From NCBI GenBank assembly GCA_964577145.1, contig CAZNXM010000004.1, forward strand, positions 1,747 through 65,746: a DNA stretch of 64,000 bases, given 5' to 3'. Both the position numbers and the translations under genes were made by a program. Every line of letters begins with the position of its first letter. Within the stretch, counting starts at the first letter, position 1. The stretch is from an uncultured Candidatus Poseidoniales archaeon. Its GTDB lineage: Archaea; Thermoplasmatota; Poseidoniia; Poseidoniales; Poseidoniaceae. The notes under the pieces were generated by a model. The model had not been told where the DNA came from and did not search any database. It worked only from the letters and a program-made list of their open reading frames with translations. Below are positions 45,775-52,694 of the stretch, one piece after another.

Positions 45775-48084
45775 TTGGTGACAATGGTGTCTGGGACTCG
45801 TATTCGTTCAATTCATCAGAGGAGGATCCTCGATTGGTTAGCGGACGGAGGAGGCACTGTTTCAGAAGTTTCTAATGCACTATCGATGCGAATGCCACAT
45901 GCTTCAGCCGCATTGAAAAAGTTGAGGGAATCGGGCGACGTCGTACGTGACGACCTAAATATTCGAGGCTCGAGATTGCGTCTTTCATCACAAGGCCTGG
46001 CTAGACTTGAGTCCGATGGACTCGATCGTCTAGAGGCGTCAGTTCGCTGGCCCCCACCTCCCGGAGCGGCCGGAATTGTTCTTGCGAGAGATGGCTCTAT
46101 GCTGTTACTTGGTTATGCATCAAAGCCTCAAGGACCCTTGATTGGGCTCCCAGATAGACCAATGGACGATGATTCTGGAGTGGTCGAAAATTCCAATGGA
46201 AACAAAGGGGGCGGGGAGTATTGGCGTTGGGGCGTCATCAGAGGAGATGGCCCTGTTTGGTGGGATTTAGAAAATGGACGCCGTGCAGAAGCTCCCGAAG
46301 ACACCTCTCCCTTGACCTTGGCAGCGTGGATGGAGCGACCAAAAATAATGGGTGTTGTCAGAGTTCGTCTCTTAGATGATACGAGAGAATGGCCCTTAGG
46401 TGTAGGAAGTTGGTTCTCTTCTCTACCTCAAGGAATTTGGCCAGACTTACCTCAGCAATTATGCGATGGCGATGTAGCATTTGGCCGAGCGGGTAATTCC
46501 GGTCCTTTAGTAAGGCCGAGGGATGGAGTTCATGCATTATTGGGCAAAAGAGATGATCAAGCTCTCGTGTTAAGAGCGGTAGCAAAAGGTGCATTGTGTA
46601 TTGCAGATTTCGATTTGCTTGGGCGTGAAGGTGCCCCTATAGCATTTGCAATTCTCAAGTATTGGCTTCGAGAAGTCCATCCCCGCCTTTCTAATGAGAC
46701 AATTTCAGAGAGAATGGCCAAGATAAAGTCAGACCTCATCGAGGGAATATCTACAGCGTCAACTCGTCGTTTATTAGCCGACTTCCCCGGCAGAGAATGG
46801 GCCGAAGAAGGTGTAATGGATACACGTTCACTCTCACTAAGAGCAGCACGCGCAATGTTGGCTTATGCTCTAGAGTCATCCAATCAACCGATTGTTGTCC
46901 ATTGGCGCTGGCCTATTGAACGAGGTGTATTGGACCAACTCGTATCAGATAGCCGTTGCCGAATGGTAATCTGTGAGGGGACTGCACTTGAATTGCCAAT
47001 GCGCTTGACATCGATGGGGGTCCATGGAAAGTTCAACCTAGAATTACCAGATAGAGTACAGATTCCAGTAAGTCTTGATGGAGATCTCTCTAGTGAGATG
47101 CCAGAGAATTGGGAAATGCCTGCAAATCCATCCGAAATAGTGCGAGGGGATTTGACCCCTCCGAGAAGTAAACCCCTCAATCAAAGAGAAGCGATGTGGG
47201 TTGCTTGCAACCTTACTTCAGATGGTAATGATACTTGGGCTGACATGGTAGAGGAGGAATATCCGCTTGCTGCATGGATTGCTACTTCACCTGAACAGAG
47301 AGGTTCGAGATGGAGGCGTATTTCCAAAAAGATTGATTCGATTTGGGCTAGCCTTGCAAATCTAGAATCTTTTGATATTGAACAATTATGTGATTTAGCT
47401 CTTGATAATACTGATGCATATGAATCACTTGTGGAGCGAGTTCGCTCTAGTCCGATGATAATGCTTGATCAAGTACACCTCATTCCTCATCCTGCAATGG
47501 CTAGTGCGTTATTATCTTCTACACATTGGCTTTCAGCATCCACAATGGAGTCAGTAGATGTTGCTTGTTCAGCATTTCTTGAAGACCCCATTGATATCGA
47601 TGGAGTAATGATGGCATGTTGGGATTCAGAACTCAAAGAGAAGGTTGCTTTAGCATGCCCTCATCACCATGCGCTTTCAGTTGGAGTACAAGACAGAGAT
47701 GCGATTATGGGAATAATTACTGCTGTTAATCATTCACTATGGAAAGAGAATGCTCTGGAATGGGTCCGCTTATTTCTCTCTTCATCTCAAGGAAGAACGA
47801 TGCTAAGCGAACTGGAGATACCATGGGCTGTATTATTATGTGATTCTGTACTATTGAGCGAGGACCTGAAATTAACTCATCACATGAAGAGTGGGCCTGG
47901 TCACGACTCATTGCTGGATGTACTCGATGCATTAGATGCTAGAGAAAGAGGAATTGCACCACCAAAAGGTAGAACTCATCCAATGGTGGGTTGGCTATTC
48001 CAAACAACTGTACCTCATGTCCCAATTCATTGTGAAGGCAACATGGAGATACACATTGCTCTACACCGACGCCTTCATGCATGA
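45775..48084 (+). CDS. Large (769 aa) hypothetical protein with N-terminal winged-helix DNA-binding-like domain
   Basis: N-terminal RRILDWLADGGGTVSEVSNALSMRMPHASAALKKLRESGDVVRD (MarR/ArsR-like wHTH). The remaining ~650 aa carry no recognisable motif. Confidence 0.55.
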   Translation: MVTMVSGTRIRSIHQRRILDWLADGGGTVSEVSNALSMRMPHASAALKKLRESGDVVRDDLNIRGSRLRLSSQGLARLESDGLDRLEASVRWPPPPGAAGIVLARDGSMLLLGYASKPQGPLIGLPDRPMDDDSGVVENSNGNKGGGEYWRWGVIRGDGPVWWDLENGRRAEAPEDTSPLTLAAWMERPKIMGVVRVRLLDDTREWPLGVGSWFSSLPQGIWPDLPQQLCDGDVAFGRAGNSGPLVRPRDGVHALLGKRDDQALVLRAVAKGALCIADFDLLGREGAPIAFAILKYWLREVHPRLSNETISERMAKIKSDLIEGISTASTRRLLADFPGREWAEEGVMDTRSLSLRAARAMLAYALESSNQPIVVHWRWPIERGVLDQLVSDSRCRMVICEGTALELPMRLTSMGVHGKFNLELPDRVQIPVSLDGDLSSEMPENWEMPANPSEIVRGDLTPPRSKPLNQREAMWVACNLTSDGNDTWADMVEEEYPLAAWIATSPEQRGSRWRRISKKIDSIWASLANLESFDIEQLCDLALDNTDAYESLVERVRSSPMIMLDQVHLIPHPAMASALLSSTHWLSASTMESVDVACSAFLEDPIDIDGVMMACWDSELKEKVALACPHHHALSVGVQDRDAIMGIITAVNHSLWKENALEWVRLFLSSSQGRTMLSELEIPWAVLLCDSVLLSEDLKLTHHMKSGPGHDSLLDVLDALDARERGIAPPKGRTHPMVGWLFQTTVPHVPIHCEGNMEIHIALHRRLHA

Positions 48085-48410
48085 GAGGCCGGTCGCGTAG
48101 TTTGGCTGCACATGCAACATCGGCTGGAGGGCGTGCTGCCCGATGAAAGCCGATACCAATGATGCGGCCATGTGCCATCGACGAAGACCAGGGTGACCTT
48201 CGGGTATGACCTCTGATGCAAACCGATGGACTATGTGGTCGGTAATGGGTCCTCGCCGGACGAAAGGATGAGTGTGAGACAACCAATCGGCCGCACAGAC
48301 GCCCTGACCCTGGGTCAAGCCTCCGAGGAGACGATGATAGGGGCTGTTACGGGTCGGGGCACAGCTTCTCTAACAATACCTTCAACTGTTGTCGAAGTAC
48401 AGTATACTAC

Positions 48411-49397
48411 ATGGTGAGGTTAGGGCGTTGCCTAGTCGGCGGTACTTTTGACCGATTTCATGCCGGCCATATCGCACTATTAGAAGCGGCTCTTGCCGAA
48501 GCCGAACTTGTTGAAGTTTGGATCGCAGGAGATGAAATGTCTGCAAGTAAATCTCCATTGATACAGTCTTTCGATGAGCGAAGAGGAGCAATTCTCGATT
48601 GGTGTGGTGAGAGAATTTCAACTCATGAACTCAAAGATGAATTGGGACCTGCACCACATAGAGCAGATTGCGATTCGATAATCTGCACACCTGAAACATT
48701 ACCCAATTGCAATTCAATAAATGAAAAGAGATTACATGCAGGCCTAATTCCTTTGGAAATCATTGAGGCCGAACATGTTCTAGATGAAACTGGAAGTATT
48801 ATCTCTAGTACAAGAATTCGAGCTGGGATAATCGATAGGGATGGAAAGGCGTGGTTGGCCAATAAGGATAGAGAAGTTACTCATTATTTCCAACCAGCAC
48901 TCGATTCTGAATTGAAAGAAGCGATGGGAGATTTGCATCTTGGCCCAGAGAATGCACCTGAAGTGGCAATGTCGTCGGCGATTGAAGATTTGACTTTTGG
49001 AATACTGGTGTCTGTAGGAGACGTATGTACCGCTACATTGCTCGATATGGACATCATTCCTGACATCGCTTTAGTTGATGGATTCACAAAGAGAACCGAA
49101 TTGGAAGATAAAGTGGACCTTTCACCATTCGATGTTCTAATCGATGCGAATAATCCGCCGGGACAAATTACCCCTTCTCTAATTGATTCTATCGAAGCAG
49201 CATTGCACAATGACCAAACCACATGTATTGAAGTGTCAGGAGAGGAAGACCTTGCTCCAATCATTATTCACCTTCTCGCACCACTTGGAACTAATGTAGT
49301 ATATGGGCAACCCGGAAAAGGGGTGGTCATACGTCATACCGATAATCAAGCTAAGCAGGAATGCCGTTCGATACTTGATCGCTTTGAGGTGAGATAA
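48411..49397 (+). CDS. coaD: Bifunctional CoA-biosynthesis fusion: archaeal phosphopantetheine adenylyltransferase + DUF359 (GTP-dependent dephospho-CoA kinase-like) domain
   Basis: N-terminal cytidylyltransferase/PPAT motif VGGTFDRFHAGHIALL. C-terminal ~170 aa with DUF359-like motifs VSVGDVCT, ALVDGFTKR, VSGEEDLAPIIIH, VVYGQPGKGVV. Confidence 0.65.
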   Translation: MVRLGRCLVGGTFDRFHAGHIALLEAALAEAELVEVWIAGDEMSASKSPLIQSFDERRGAILDWCGERISTHELKDELGPAPHRADCDSIICTPETLPNCNSINEKRLHAGLIPLEIIEAEHVLDETGSIISSTRIRAGIIDRDGKAWLANKDREVTHYFQPALDSELKEAMGDLHLGPENAPEVAMSSAIEDLTFGILVSVGDVCTATLLDMDIIPDIALVDGFTKRTELEDKVDLSPFDVLIDANNPPGQITPSLIDSIEAALHNDQTTCIEVSGEEDLAPIIIHLLAPLGTNVVYGQPGKGVVIRHTDNQAKQECRSILDRFEVR

Positions 49398-50431
49398 TGA
49401 CTCTAGTTTCAATCACCGTTTGCGTCAGAAATAGCAATGATTGGATTGATGATTGTATGGAATCATTGGTTAACCAAACCCACCGTCCACTAGAGATTAT
49501 TATTGTCGATGATGGTTCAAATGATGGTTCAACAGAGAAGGTAAAAAAATGGGGAGAGGAAGAATTTGTTACTGCAATTACTCAGAAAGCATTGGGGTTA
49601 TCTGCAGGTAGAATGGCTGCACTTGAAGTAGCGCGTGGAGAATGGGTTGCAATTACCGACATCGATGTTCGGCCCGAACCGGATTGGATTGAACAATTAC
49701 TCTTGGCTTCCCCTTCACAAGAGGAAGAAGAGGTCGTTGCAGTAACTGGTAGAACTGTATTCGGTCAGTCAAATGATGTGGTCTCAATTATCAGATCGAT
49801 TGAAATCCAAGCAAAATATCGTTCTAGGCCCAGAAGAACAAGTCTCGCAAATGGTCCATGTTCAATGTTCAACAGGGAGAAATTACTCGAGGTAGGGGGA
49901 TTTAATCCAACTTGGTATCATGCTGAAGACATGGAGGTATCTTTGAAGTTAATAGCTGAAGGAGGGGTAATCATCTATGCTCCTGACGCTGTTGTCAACC
50001 ATATTCCTGAAACCGGGCTCACTCGATTCCTTAGCAAGAGAAAAAGAGATTCAAGAGCTCACGTCAGGATTGTACGAAATTATTCAGCGCGTAATCGAAG
50101 AGGTTTAGGTTTTGATTTCATAGGTTCCTCGTGGATTATTCTCGCACTATTACCAGCATGTCTCTCAATGATTGCTGGCTTTGTATTATTATTGAAAGAT
50201 GGATACGATTTCGGCAATATGAAAAATGAGTTTATCACATTTGGTGAACCCGTTTGGCTATTATTGCCAATTCTGATTTGGTTGATTCTCTCCTTGCGTA
50301 CAACATTATTCATTGCGGCTAAAAAGAGCCCGCTCAAAGCCCCATTGATATTCATAGCGTGGTCGTTAGCACTATGGCTAGGAATCATTCTTGGTTACCT
50401 TGACGCCCTATTCGGGCGTAATGGGCACTGA
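49397..50431 (+). CDS. Family 2 glycosyltransferase with C-terminal membrane helices
   Basis: GT2 motifs VSITVCVRN...EIIIVDDGSNDGS and a DxD region. Its start overlaps the upstream stop (TAATG). Confidence 0.8.
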   Translation: MTLVSITVCVRNSNDWIDDCMESLVNQTHRPLEIIIVDDGSNDGSTEKVKKWGEEEFVTAITQKALGLSAGRMAALEVARGEWVAITDIDVRPEPDWIEQLLLASPSQEEEEVVAVTGRTVFGQSNDVVSIIRSIEIQAKYRSRPRRTSLANGPCSMFNREKLLEVGGFNPTWYHAEDMEVSLKLIAEGGVIIYAPDAVVNHIPETGLTRFLSKRKRDSRAHVRIVRNYSARNRRGLGFDFIGSSWIILALLPACLSMIAGFVLLLKDGYDFGNMKNEFITFGEPVWLLLPILIWLILSLRTTLFIAAKKSPLKAPLIFIAWSLALWLGIILGYLDALFGRNGH

Positions 50432-50995
50432 TCATTCCTCGGTTTCAGTTTCAACTAGCATCCTCATGACAAGTCCACTAGCAATCAAAGCCACACATAC
50501 CGAATATACTCCGGGGTCAATCCAATTCGTGAATAGTATTCCACGGATGATGTAGAAAATCAAGCCGATGGTAATCAACCATCCACCAATAGGTGTTGCC
50601 AATCCTTTGTCGAAGGAAAAGAGGGAAAGGACGAATCCGACTTCATGCTCAAAAGTAGATTTCAAATGCTCTTCCATTGTACCATCGCCAATCTGTGTTC
50701 GCATACCTAAGAATAATGCAGCACAACAAATTGCCATGAAAACAATGTCACCCAAAACAATCGAGAAACCATCAGCAACATCAAATGCAGCGTTGGTCAT
50801 CTCAAAGGTGAGTAGGCCACCCCAAGAGATTCTATGGTGAGGGTGAACAATTCCAAGGCAGTTCATGACTGCGAGGAAAAGTCCCCAAATTCCTAACGCA
50901 ACATACCAGTCAGCAAGTCCCTTTGAAGGGAGTATGAAGGTCTCGAGAAGGCTGCGCTCTCCATTCTCATTGCTGTTGCTCATGGCGACTGCCAC
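50432..50995 (-). CDS. Hypothetical polytopic membrane protein
   Basis: 187 aa with 4-5 TM helices. Confidence 0.5.
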   Translation of the reverse strand: MAVAMSNSNENGERSLLETFILPSKGLADWYVALGIWGLFLAVMNCLGIVHPHHRISWGGLLTFEMTNAAFDVADGFSIVLGDIVFMAICCAALFLGMRTQIGDGTMEEHLKSTFEHEVGFVLSLFSFDKGLATPIGGWLITIGLIFYIIRGILFTNWIDPGVYSVCVALIASGLVMRMLVETETEE

Positions 50996-51041: not shown

Positions 51042-52283
51042 TCAAAGGCGGCTTTGGTGCCGGAACCTATTTGCAAAGATTTCCGAGAATACTGGTTCGG
51101 CCTTTGCCATCACATCGATTGGGTCGATGTTATTGGGGATACAGGAATTAATCTCCTTGGATCTACCATGCCTTCCTCTTGAAATTACTTTAGCTGTAAT
51201 TAAGCCTAGCATGTCGAGATTATTGATAATGCCAGAGATTCTTCTTGCAGTTAGGAATTGCTGGCCAACTAAATTGCAAGCCTGTTTGTAAATGTGATAA
51301 ACTTCACCAGTCTGAATATTGCGAAGTCCATTACTCTCATTGATGAGAACAGATGCAAGAACCATCTTCTGTTGTGTGGGAAGAGTACGAATCACTGGTG
51401 TAACTTGGTCGGATTCAATTTGAGCCTGAGCAATCCTAACATGTTGTTGCTCTACAATGCCAACACCTTCTTGCTCAGCCTTTTCGGTAGAAACACGAAG
51501 TAAATCAAGTGCGCAACGGGCATCTCCGTTTTCTTGTGCTGCAAGTGCAGCGCACAATTCTATGACACCGTCTCCAATCGCATCTGGAGTGATTGCATTT
51601 TGTGCCCTTCCTCTAAGAATATCTTGAAGTTGCTCAGCATTATATGGATTGAATATGATATCTTCCTGGCCAAGCCTACTTCTTACTCGTGGATCGAGGA
51701 AGTCAGTAAATTTGAGATCGTTTGAGATGCCGATAACACATGCCCTAGCATTTTTTAATTCAGCATTCAAGTTTGTCAAATTGTAAAGAAGGTCATCTCC
51801 AGCCTTCTTTACAAGGTGGTCGATTTCGTCAAGTACGATGACATAAACTCCCCCGCGTTCATCCATCCGTCTCACTAATTCTGAAAACACCCGGTCAGTT
51901 GGCCAGCCAGTAAATGGGATATCAGCCTCTTCATGAGCTTCAAGAAGTGTGTTTCCAAGATGGGATAATACTCGGTATTGAGTATCGATTTGTCGGCAGT
52001 TAACCAAAACTGGATGAACAACTCTTCCAATTTGTTCACCCTTTCGCAGGAGTTGGTCACAAACATATCTGGTGACAGCGGTTTTACCGGCTCCGGTCAC
52101 GCCGTAGAGAATCATATTCGAAGGAATGTGGCCCTTAAGGGCCTCGACTAAATTGAAACTTAAAGTCTCAACTTCTGCATCACGATGAGGCAGTCTTTCA
52201 GGGGTGTGAGTGTGGCGCAGTGTCTCCTTTTGGATGAAAAGCGTCCTTTGTGTGAGAATGCCATCGAAAATATTTGACGACAT
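51042..52283 (-). CDS. orc1: Orc1/Cdc6 replication initiator (AAA+ with C-terminal winged helix)
   Basis: Walker A LYGVTGAGKTAVTRYV, Walker B VIVLDEIDHL, sensor regions, and a C-terminal wH domain. RBS GAGGAG upstream. Confidence 0.9.
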   Translation of the reverse strand: MSSNIFDGILTQRTLFIQKETLRHTHTPERLPHRDAEVETLSFNLVEALKGHIPSNMILYGVTGAGKTAVTRYVCDQLLRKGEQIGRVVHPVLVNCRQIDTQYRVLSHLGNTLLEAHEEADIPFTGWPTDRVFSELVRRMDERGGVYVIVLDEIDHLVKKAGDDLLYNLTNLNAELKNARACVIGISNDLKFTDFLDPRVRSRLGQEDIIFNPYNAEQLQDILRGRAQNAITPDAIGDGVIELCAALAAQENGDARCALDLLRVSTEKAEQEGVGIVEQQHVRIAQAQIESDQVTPVIRTLPTQQKMVLASVLINESNGLRNIQTGEVYHIYKQACNLVGQQFLTARRISGIINNLDMLGLITAKVISRGRHGRSKEINSCIPNNIDPIDVMAKAEPVFSEIFANRFRHQSRL

Positions 52284-52694
52284 TTTATTACACTTCTCCT
52301 CATATCATTCAAGGTTGTCCGGCTGGCAGACACAATGCATGATGACTTACGTGAGTCCGAGTCCGCCATATAAATTTGTTTGCTGATGAAGAATTAAAGT
52401 GAGGAATAGCCGACTTATTCAACTTCAATTGGAGTTCATAAAGGGGAGGGCGTTTTCAGCATGATTATTGAAAAAAACAGCATACTGTCGGTCTGAATCC
52501 GGAAACTTTTCCGTAGGGAACTTTTTTTCCAAAGCGATAGAGCTGTCAAATCCGACTCTCTATTTGGAAAGCCAAAGTCAATTCGAAAACAATCGTAACA
52601 AGCTAAGATCAAATTTTGTATATAACCTCCAATTGGAGAATTCAAGATTAAGTGTGAAAATTACACTCCCGTGAGTTATTTTTTGATGTTATTA
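52284..52694. promoter_or_regulatory. Candidate replication origin (oriC) upstream of orc1/cdc6
   Basis: A 411-bp non-coding region with AT-rich tracts. A perfect 12-bp palindrome CTCCAATTGGAG at 52627-52638 and a near-copy CTTCAATTGGAG at 52423-52434 bracket the AT-rich core. An inverted repeat tttccaaa...tttggaaa lies at 52527-52572. Confidence 0.4.

Follow-up and report, generated by a model that had tools for sequence, protein, structure and literature searches.

Can one polypeptide of a Poseidoniaceae (marine group II) archaeon carry out the last two steps of CoA synthesis, and, if so, is the underlying gene fusion genuine and new? The question is raised by an open reading frame in the 64-kb stretch of DNA analysed here (the window), which was predicted from its sequence to join an archaeal phosphopantetheine adenylyltransferase (PPAT) to a DUF359-type, GTP-dependent dephospho-CoA kinase (DPCK). 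DUF359 has been tied to CoA biosynthesis by an 'analysis of domain fusions' (Makarova et al. 2019). Fusions of PPAT to arCOG04076 have been reported from uncultured marine group II/III euryarchaeota, e.g. AIF21550.1, and served as the clue by which the archaeal DPCK, TK1697, was found and then proven (Shimosaka et al. 2019, mBio 10:e01146-19).

A single reading frame with two domains

The gene was found at the coordinates originally predicted, as a single intact open reading frame. The three sequence motifs quoted in the prediction were also located in its translation: GGTFDRFHAGH at aa 10-20, VSGEEDLAPIIIH at aa 275-287, and VVYGQPGKGVV at aa 296-306. The gene and its parts are:

48411..49397, + strand: fused PPAT-DPCK gene, ATG start, 328 aa and a TAA stop (ORF list)
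48426..48851, + strand: PPAT domain, aa 6-147 (NF001985, PF01467, 3do8_A, Foldseek)
48852..48887, + strand: inter-domain junction, ∼aa 148-159, short and lacking a long disordered linker
48888..49391, + strand: DUF359/arCOG04076 domain, predicted GTP-dependent DPCK, aa 160-327 (PF04019, NF041125, 8jvc_A, Foldseek)

An AlphaFold2 model of the fused protein, built on 11 homologues, reached a pLDDT of 91.1 and a pTM of 0.86, with pLDDT values of 82-94 at the junction. The junction also aligned without indels between the fused proteins of Poseidoniales and those of CPR. The high pTM of the model and its short, well-ordered junction suggest that the arrangement of the two domains is fixed. Their order, PPAT followed by DPCK, is the order of the two final steps of CoA synthesis.

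The dephospho-CoA kinase half

The original prediction had been made to depend on the C-terminal half matching DUF359 profiles. It does so clearly: an HMM search with PF04019 gave a match at aa 207-326 (E 6.4e-33, 113.5 bits against a cutoff of 25), spanning profile positions 2-126 of 126. The NCBIfam model for GTP-dependent DPCK, NF041125, matched aa 160-327 (E 4.4e-30); the score of 104.5 bits misses its equivalog cutoff of 300, but the model is specific to Thermococcales, so membership of the family is unaffected. Among solved structures, the sequence of this half matched the Thermococcus kodakarensis DPCK (8jvc_A, E 4.7e-24, aa 164-327), and Foldseek retrieved the same structure with the model (E 1.3e-16, TMt 0.84, 38% identity over 175 aligned columns).

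DUF359 DPCKs have a thiamine-pyrophosphokinase-like variant of the Rossmann fold and are distant kin of the thiamine pyrophosphokinases (PMC6650551). Mutants of TK1697 identify residues that matter in the cell, as D48A and D67A severely impair growth and D125A causes a partial defect (Shimosaka et al. 2019, PMC6650551). The equivalent residues of the window protein, taken from a HMMER alignment to 8jvc, are:

49020..49022, + strand: Asp204 (in VGDV, aa 202-205), equivalent to Tk-DPCK Asp48
49077..49079, + strand: Asp223 (in LVDG), equivalent to Tk-DPCK Asp67
49248..49250, + strand: Asp280 (in GEEDLA), equivalent to Tk-DPCK Asp125

All three aspartates are invariant in 11 Poseidoniales sequences and in a mixed alignment of Poseidoniales and CPR proteins. 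The same holds for G277, E278, E279, D280, and L281 of the GEEDLA motif. Profile and alignment evidence thus supports an assignment of the C-terminal half to the DUF359/PF04019/arCOG04076 dephospho-CoA kinases, of which it is a divergent member. Its phosphate donor (GTP or ATP) cannot be read off the sequence; by analogy with the T. kodakarensis enzyme, GTP is most likely.

Could the chemistry of this half have shifted, either to an ATP-dependent DPCK or to a kinase or pyrophosphokinase with a different substrate? Identity to Tk-DPCK is just 38%, the score lies far under the Thermococcales equivalog cutoff, the family is distantly related to the thiamine pyrophosphokinases, and donor specificity has been established for one enzyme only. 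We nevertheless consider such a shift unlikely, given that neither the three catalytic aspartates nor the GEEDLA and YGQP motifs vary, that the fold of 8jvc is matched with a TMt of 0.84, and that fusion to a PPAT favours dephospho-CoA as the substrate. A change of donor alone would in any case leave the role in the pathway intact.

The phosphopantetheine adenylyltransferase half

The N-terminal half matched PF01467 at aa 8-138 (E 1.3e-9, 38.8 bits against a cutoff of 21), but this family is broad, and the assignment to PPAT leans on the NCBIfam PPAT subfamily model NF001985 and on the logic of the fusion. NF001985 matched aa 6-147 with 113.6 bits, above its curated threshold of 104. In sequence, the closest solved structure is the Archaeoglobus fulgidus PPAT (3do8_A, E 2e-9, aa 8-145). 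The AlphaFold2 model and the Foldseek alignment to 3do8 give this half a Rossmann-like nucleotidyltransferase fold; 3do8 ranked first (TMt 0.77-0.80, rmsd 1.7-2.5 Å), followed by many bacterial CoaD structures. Two signatures of nucleotidyltransferases are present:

48438..48470, + strand: GGTFDRFHAGH, (H/T)xGH nucleotide-binding motif, aa 10-20, with FHAGH at aa 16-20
48801..48821, + strand: ISSTRIR, second nucleotidyltransferase signature (ISxxxxR), aa 131-137

In the first of these, G11, T12, F13, D14, H17, G19, and H20 are invariant both within Poseidoniales and when CPR sequences are added. The second aligns with the ISSTRIKRG of 3do8 from A. fulgidus. Of its residues, I136 and R137 do not vary in either alignment, and S132, S133, and R135 are constant only within the Poseidoniales set. 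The evidence from profiles and motifs supports a putative archaeal-type PPAT (NF001985/COG1019, within PF01467).

Since PF01467 is generic, the domain might instead be another HxGH nucleotidyltransferase (e.g. one acting on FMN, NMN, or glycerol-3-phosphate), with the DUF359 kinase coupled to a different pathway. Weak matches to NMNAT and glycerol-3-phosphate cytidylyltransferase models and structures, and an extra FAD_syn-like nucleotidyltransferase domain in some CPR relatives, point in that direction. However, NF001985 is the only nucleotidyltransferase model to exceed its curated cutoff, and the others stay below 32 bits and cover the first 40-60 residues alone. The top structural matches are the archaeal PPAT and then bacterial CoaD, and the product of a PPAT is what the partner domain acts on. 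We regard a different nucleotidyltransferase as very improbable, and retain PPAT as the identity of the N-terminal half.

Conservation of the fusion in Poseidoniales

A protein search returned 437 matches. Among the best 120, almost every protein has the two Pfam domains within 328-391 aa, at identities from 93% down to 49%, the exceptions being a few truncated calls of 252-287 aa; their source names include Poseidoniaceae, Poseidoniales, Poseidonia sp., and 'Euryarchaeota archaeon'. When each GTDB species was represented by one genome, 494 genomes proved to encode a relative. In the best 80 of these, which are MAGs of Poseidoniaceae (MGIIa) and Thalassarchaeaceae (MGIIb), the match covers essentially the whole length, with one cut by a contig end. 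The closest is Candidatus Poseidoniaceae archaeon ETNP1_MAG_19, with 94% identity. Across the protein and genome searches, full-length Poseidoniales homologues range from 93% down to 47% identity.

A frameshift had been named at the outset as the other way in which the predicted fusion might fail, and the reading frame proved unbroken in more than 120 protein clusters and in the best 80 species genomes. This continuity excludes a merger by frameshift. An artefact of sequencing or assembly, in which a frameshift or a missing stop codon joined neighbouring coaD and DUF359 genes, thus has practically no chance of being correct, even though the two proteins are encoded separately in most cultured archaea (Shimosaka et al. 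2019) and a few short matches (P0196, P0198, and P0143) resemble separate halves: the same continuous frame, of 328-340 aa, recurs in independent species-level genomes, the junction is well conserved and confidently folded in the model, and the short matches nest inside the fused clade of the tree, which makes them more likely to be truncated gene calls than separate halves. Frameshift and mis-assembly were therefore rejected; only a systematic error common to hundreds of independent assemblies could rescue them.

A tblastn search with each half found only the fused gene in the 64-kb window, i.e. no second copy of PPAT or DUF359. Pfam scans of 24 flanking ORFs (∼34.3-61.6 kb) revealed neither a further gene of CoA biosynthesis nor a P-loop CoaE.

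Public annotation of the fused PPAT-DPCK proteins is incomplete. NCBI names fused homologues only 'pantetheine-phosphate adenylyltransferase' (P0002, P0053, P0082, P0096, and P0108), and the name used by JGI is 'UPF0218 family/phosphopantetheine adenylyltransferase'. In NCBIfam, the kinase half reaches the cutoff of no model and the fused form is covered by none; the DPCK function is consequently not propagated in databases.

Gene neighbourhood and a candidate small RNA

The fusion sits in a block of genes that is kept across the order and consists of a 769-aa protein, the fusion, a family-2 glycosyltransferase (GT2), and, on the opposite strand, a 187-aa membrane protein and Orc1/Cdc6. In the window the surrounding features are:

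45775..48084, + strand: 769-aa ORF without a Pfam match, upstream of the candidate small RNA and the fusion
∼48103..48368, + strand: candidate H/ACA-box guide sRNA with several hairpins, lying between the 769-aa ORF and the fusion
49397..50431, + strand: family-2 glycosyltransferase gene (PF00535, E 2.5e-26)
50432..50995, - strand: 187-aa multi-pass membrane protein without a Pfam match, converging on the glycosyltransferase gene
51042..52283, - strand: Orc1/Cdc6 gene, two genes downstream of the fusion, 99% identical to that of the closest MAG

The ATG of the glycosyltransferase gene overlaps the stop codon of the fusion (TAATG), and 78 of 80 related loci have a glycosyltransferase gene directly 3' of the fusion. 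The two genes are probably co-transcribed. A functional link between CoA synthesis and a GT2 glycosyltransferase is not evident. On the other side, 70 of 80 Poseidoniales loci keep the 769-aa ORF (24-92% identity) immediately upstream of the candidate sRNA and the fusion, and by eye its N-terminus resembles a winged-helix DNA-binding domain. Upstream of Orc1/Cdc6, at 52423..52638, an 18-nt inverted repeat (CTTCAATTGGAGTTCATA / TATAACCTCCAATTGGAG) was found with its arms 180 nt apart; the arms may represent ORB-like elements on either side of a replication origin.

The 326-bp gap upstream of the fusion has a mean nucleotide identity of 78% across 12 Poseidoniales species, against just 30-74% identity for the proteins that flank it. 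In the RNAalifold prediction, 75 base pairs make up four hairpins; 25 of the pairs show compensatory double changes, and the G-U pairs fit the + strand only. Hairpins 3 and 4 are each followed by ACA, and the element also has K-turn-like GA motifs and invariant internal loops. The sole Rfam match is to the Pyrococcus H/ACA sRNA HgcG/Pab40, and it is weak, with 17.3 bits where the gathering score is 77. Each of the 35 closest loci has the invariant blocks in the same place; so does L050, and L053 has one of the two. On these sequence features, the element is a candidate for a conserved, structured, H/ACA-like small RNA.

Fused homologues in CPR/Patescibacteria

When the phylogenetic distribution was traced beyond the Poseidoniales species genomes, the fusion was found to be abundant in CPR/Patescibacteria. 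With phmmer, 1.84 billion cluster representatives were searched exhaustively, yielding 3249 matches, and the best 150 are mostly full-length fused proteins with just 30-38% identity. A search seeded with one of the CPR proteins (P0139) gave 1047 matches, of which the best 120 all combine PF01467 with PF04019; the few named organisms among these 120 are Candidatus Roizmanbacteria, Woesebacteria, Parcubacteria, and 'bacterium'. Fused homologues from CPR also include P0307, P0320, P0195, and P0336. One CPR fusion (L082, 8001..9008) lies on a closed chromosome of 1,448,136 bp (CP065004.1), flanked by aminoacyl-tRNA synthetase genes.

The domain architecture is not uniform. Variants of ∼490-540 aa have a further nucleotidyltransferase domain at the N-terminus (PF01467, of FAD_syn-like or citrate-lyase-ligase-like type); these are P0223, P0225, P0267 (L081, 3001..4572), P0343, and P0372, and P0267 adjoins an NAD synthase gene. 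In P0268, a protein of 327 aa, DUF359 precedes PPAT; this reversed order implies that the domains were joined independently and argues for functional coupling of the two.

To place these sequences, the DPCK domains of 53 proteins (164 columns) were used for an NJ tree with bootstrapping. It recovered a single clade of marine-archaeal fused proteins with 93% support and left the CPR sequences unresolved, and monophyly of all fused proteins received 10% support. The DPCK domain of the window scores 90-95 bits against standalone Thermococcales DPCKs and 40-73 bits against fused CPR proteins. We propose only tentatively that the window protein belongs to a PPAT-DPCK fusion family reaching beyond marine archaea into CPR/Patescibacteria, in which hundreds of fused homologues occur. 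If there was one fusion origin and the gene moved between domains of life, bacteria with reduced genomes would finish CoA with an 'archaeal' GTP-dependent kinase module. The family has been presented as archaeal, with bacterial carriers unmentioned (Shimosaka et al. 2019, mBio 10:e01146-19), and our literature searches on CPR/Patescibacteria found no paper on bacterial carriers of the PPAT-DUF359 fusion.

Proposed function

Profiles, solved-structure homologues, the AlphaFold model, and the catalytic residues agree that both halves are the enzymes originally named. Together with the conservation of the catalytic residues, the fold, and the presence of the fusion throughout the order, these domain identities, all observed here, point to a bifunctional enzyme for the last two steps of CoA synthesis in a Poseidoniaceae archaeon. 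We give this reading a probability of about 0.9. Its catalytic activities, its preference for GTP, and any channelling are what we infer from these observations. The N-terminal HxGH domain would convert ATP and 4'-phosphopantetheine to dephospho-CoA and PPi. The C-terminal DUF359 domain would then phosphorylate the 3'-hydroxyl of dephospho-CoA with an NTP, most likely GTP as in T. kodakarensis TK1697, to yield CoA. A fusion would guarantee 1:1 expression and bring both active sites into one compact protein, where dephospho-CoA may be handed over more readily. Substrate channelling between the tightly packed domains is the remaining possibility for something novel in this gene; a biochemical assay of a fused PPAT-DPCK protein was not found in the literature searched.

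The gene would complete the CoA pathway of an archaeal group that is among the most abundant in the surface ocean. The fusion is a textbook 'Rosetta-stone' case, which let the last missing archaeal CoA enzyme be identified in 2019.

Comparison with known systems

The fusion has been known since 2019, and the window protein is an ordinary member of a known family. The interpretation originally put forward was right and only its novelty was overrated; the window gene itself adds no new biology. It shares the two domains, the taxon, and the inferred function of the fusions described by Shimosaka et al. (2019), among which it is placed by architecture and taxon. The enzyme characterised in that work was, however, the standalone one of T. 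kodakarensis and not a fused protein.

Compared to that enzyme (TK1697; 8jvc, NF041125), the C-terminal half of the window protein has the same fold and the three catalytic aspartates, with the TMt of 0.84 and 38% identity given above. TK1697 is a standalone protein of 175 aa from a hyperthermophile, whereas the DPCK domain of the window is part of a fusion and falls below the NF041125 cutoff. The N-terminal half similarly shares HxGH, ISSTRIR, and the fold with archaeal PPATs (COG1019; A. fulgidus 3do8 and T. kodakarensis TK2128). The latter are standalone proteins of ∼150-160 aa, whereas the PPAT of the window is fused at its C-terminus to the DPCK. The PPAT half (aa 7-147) also matches NF002250 (PRK01170, 'bifunctional pantetheine-phosphate adenylyltransferase/NTP phosphatase'), in which the partner domain is an NTP phosphatase instead of DUF359; membership was rejected at 82.5 bits, far below the cutoff of 489.

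The eukaryotic CoA synthase (COASY) catalyses the same two reactions and has its domains in the same order, PPAT then DPCK. The original prediction held that the archaeal fusion is built from domains non-homologous to those of CoA synthase, and this is correct for the kinase half only. The kinase of COASY is a P-loop, CoaE-type DPCK (PF01121), for which a Pfam scan of the window protein gave no match at E<=1, and it is non-homologous to the thiamine-pyrophosphokinase-like DUF359 domain. For the PPAT half the claim fails, as COASY and the window protein draw on a common nucleotidyltransferase superfamily, the HxGH superfamily of bacterial and eukaryotic PPATs, in line with the CoaD matches found by Foldseek. 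The window protein is an analogue of COASY that arose by convergent fusion and not a member of its family.
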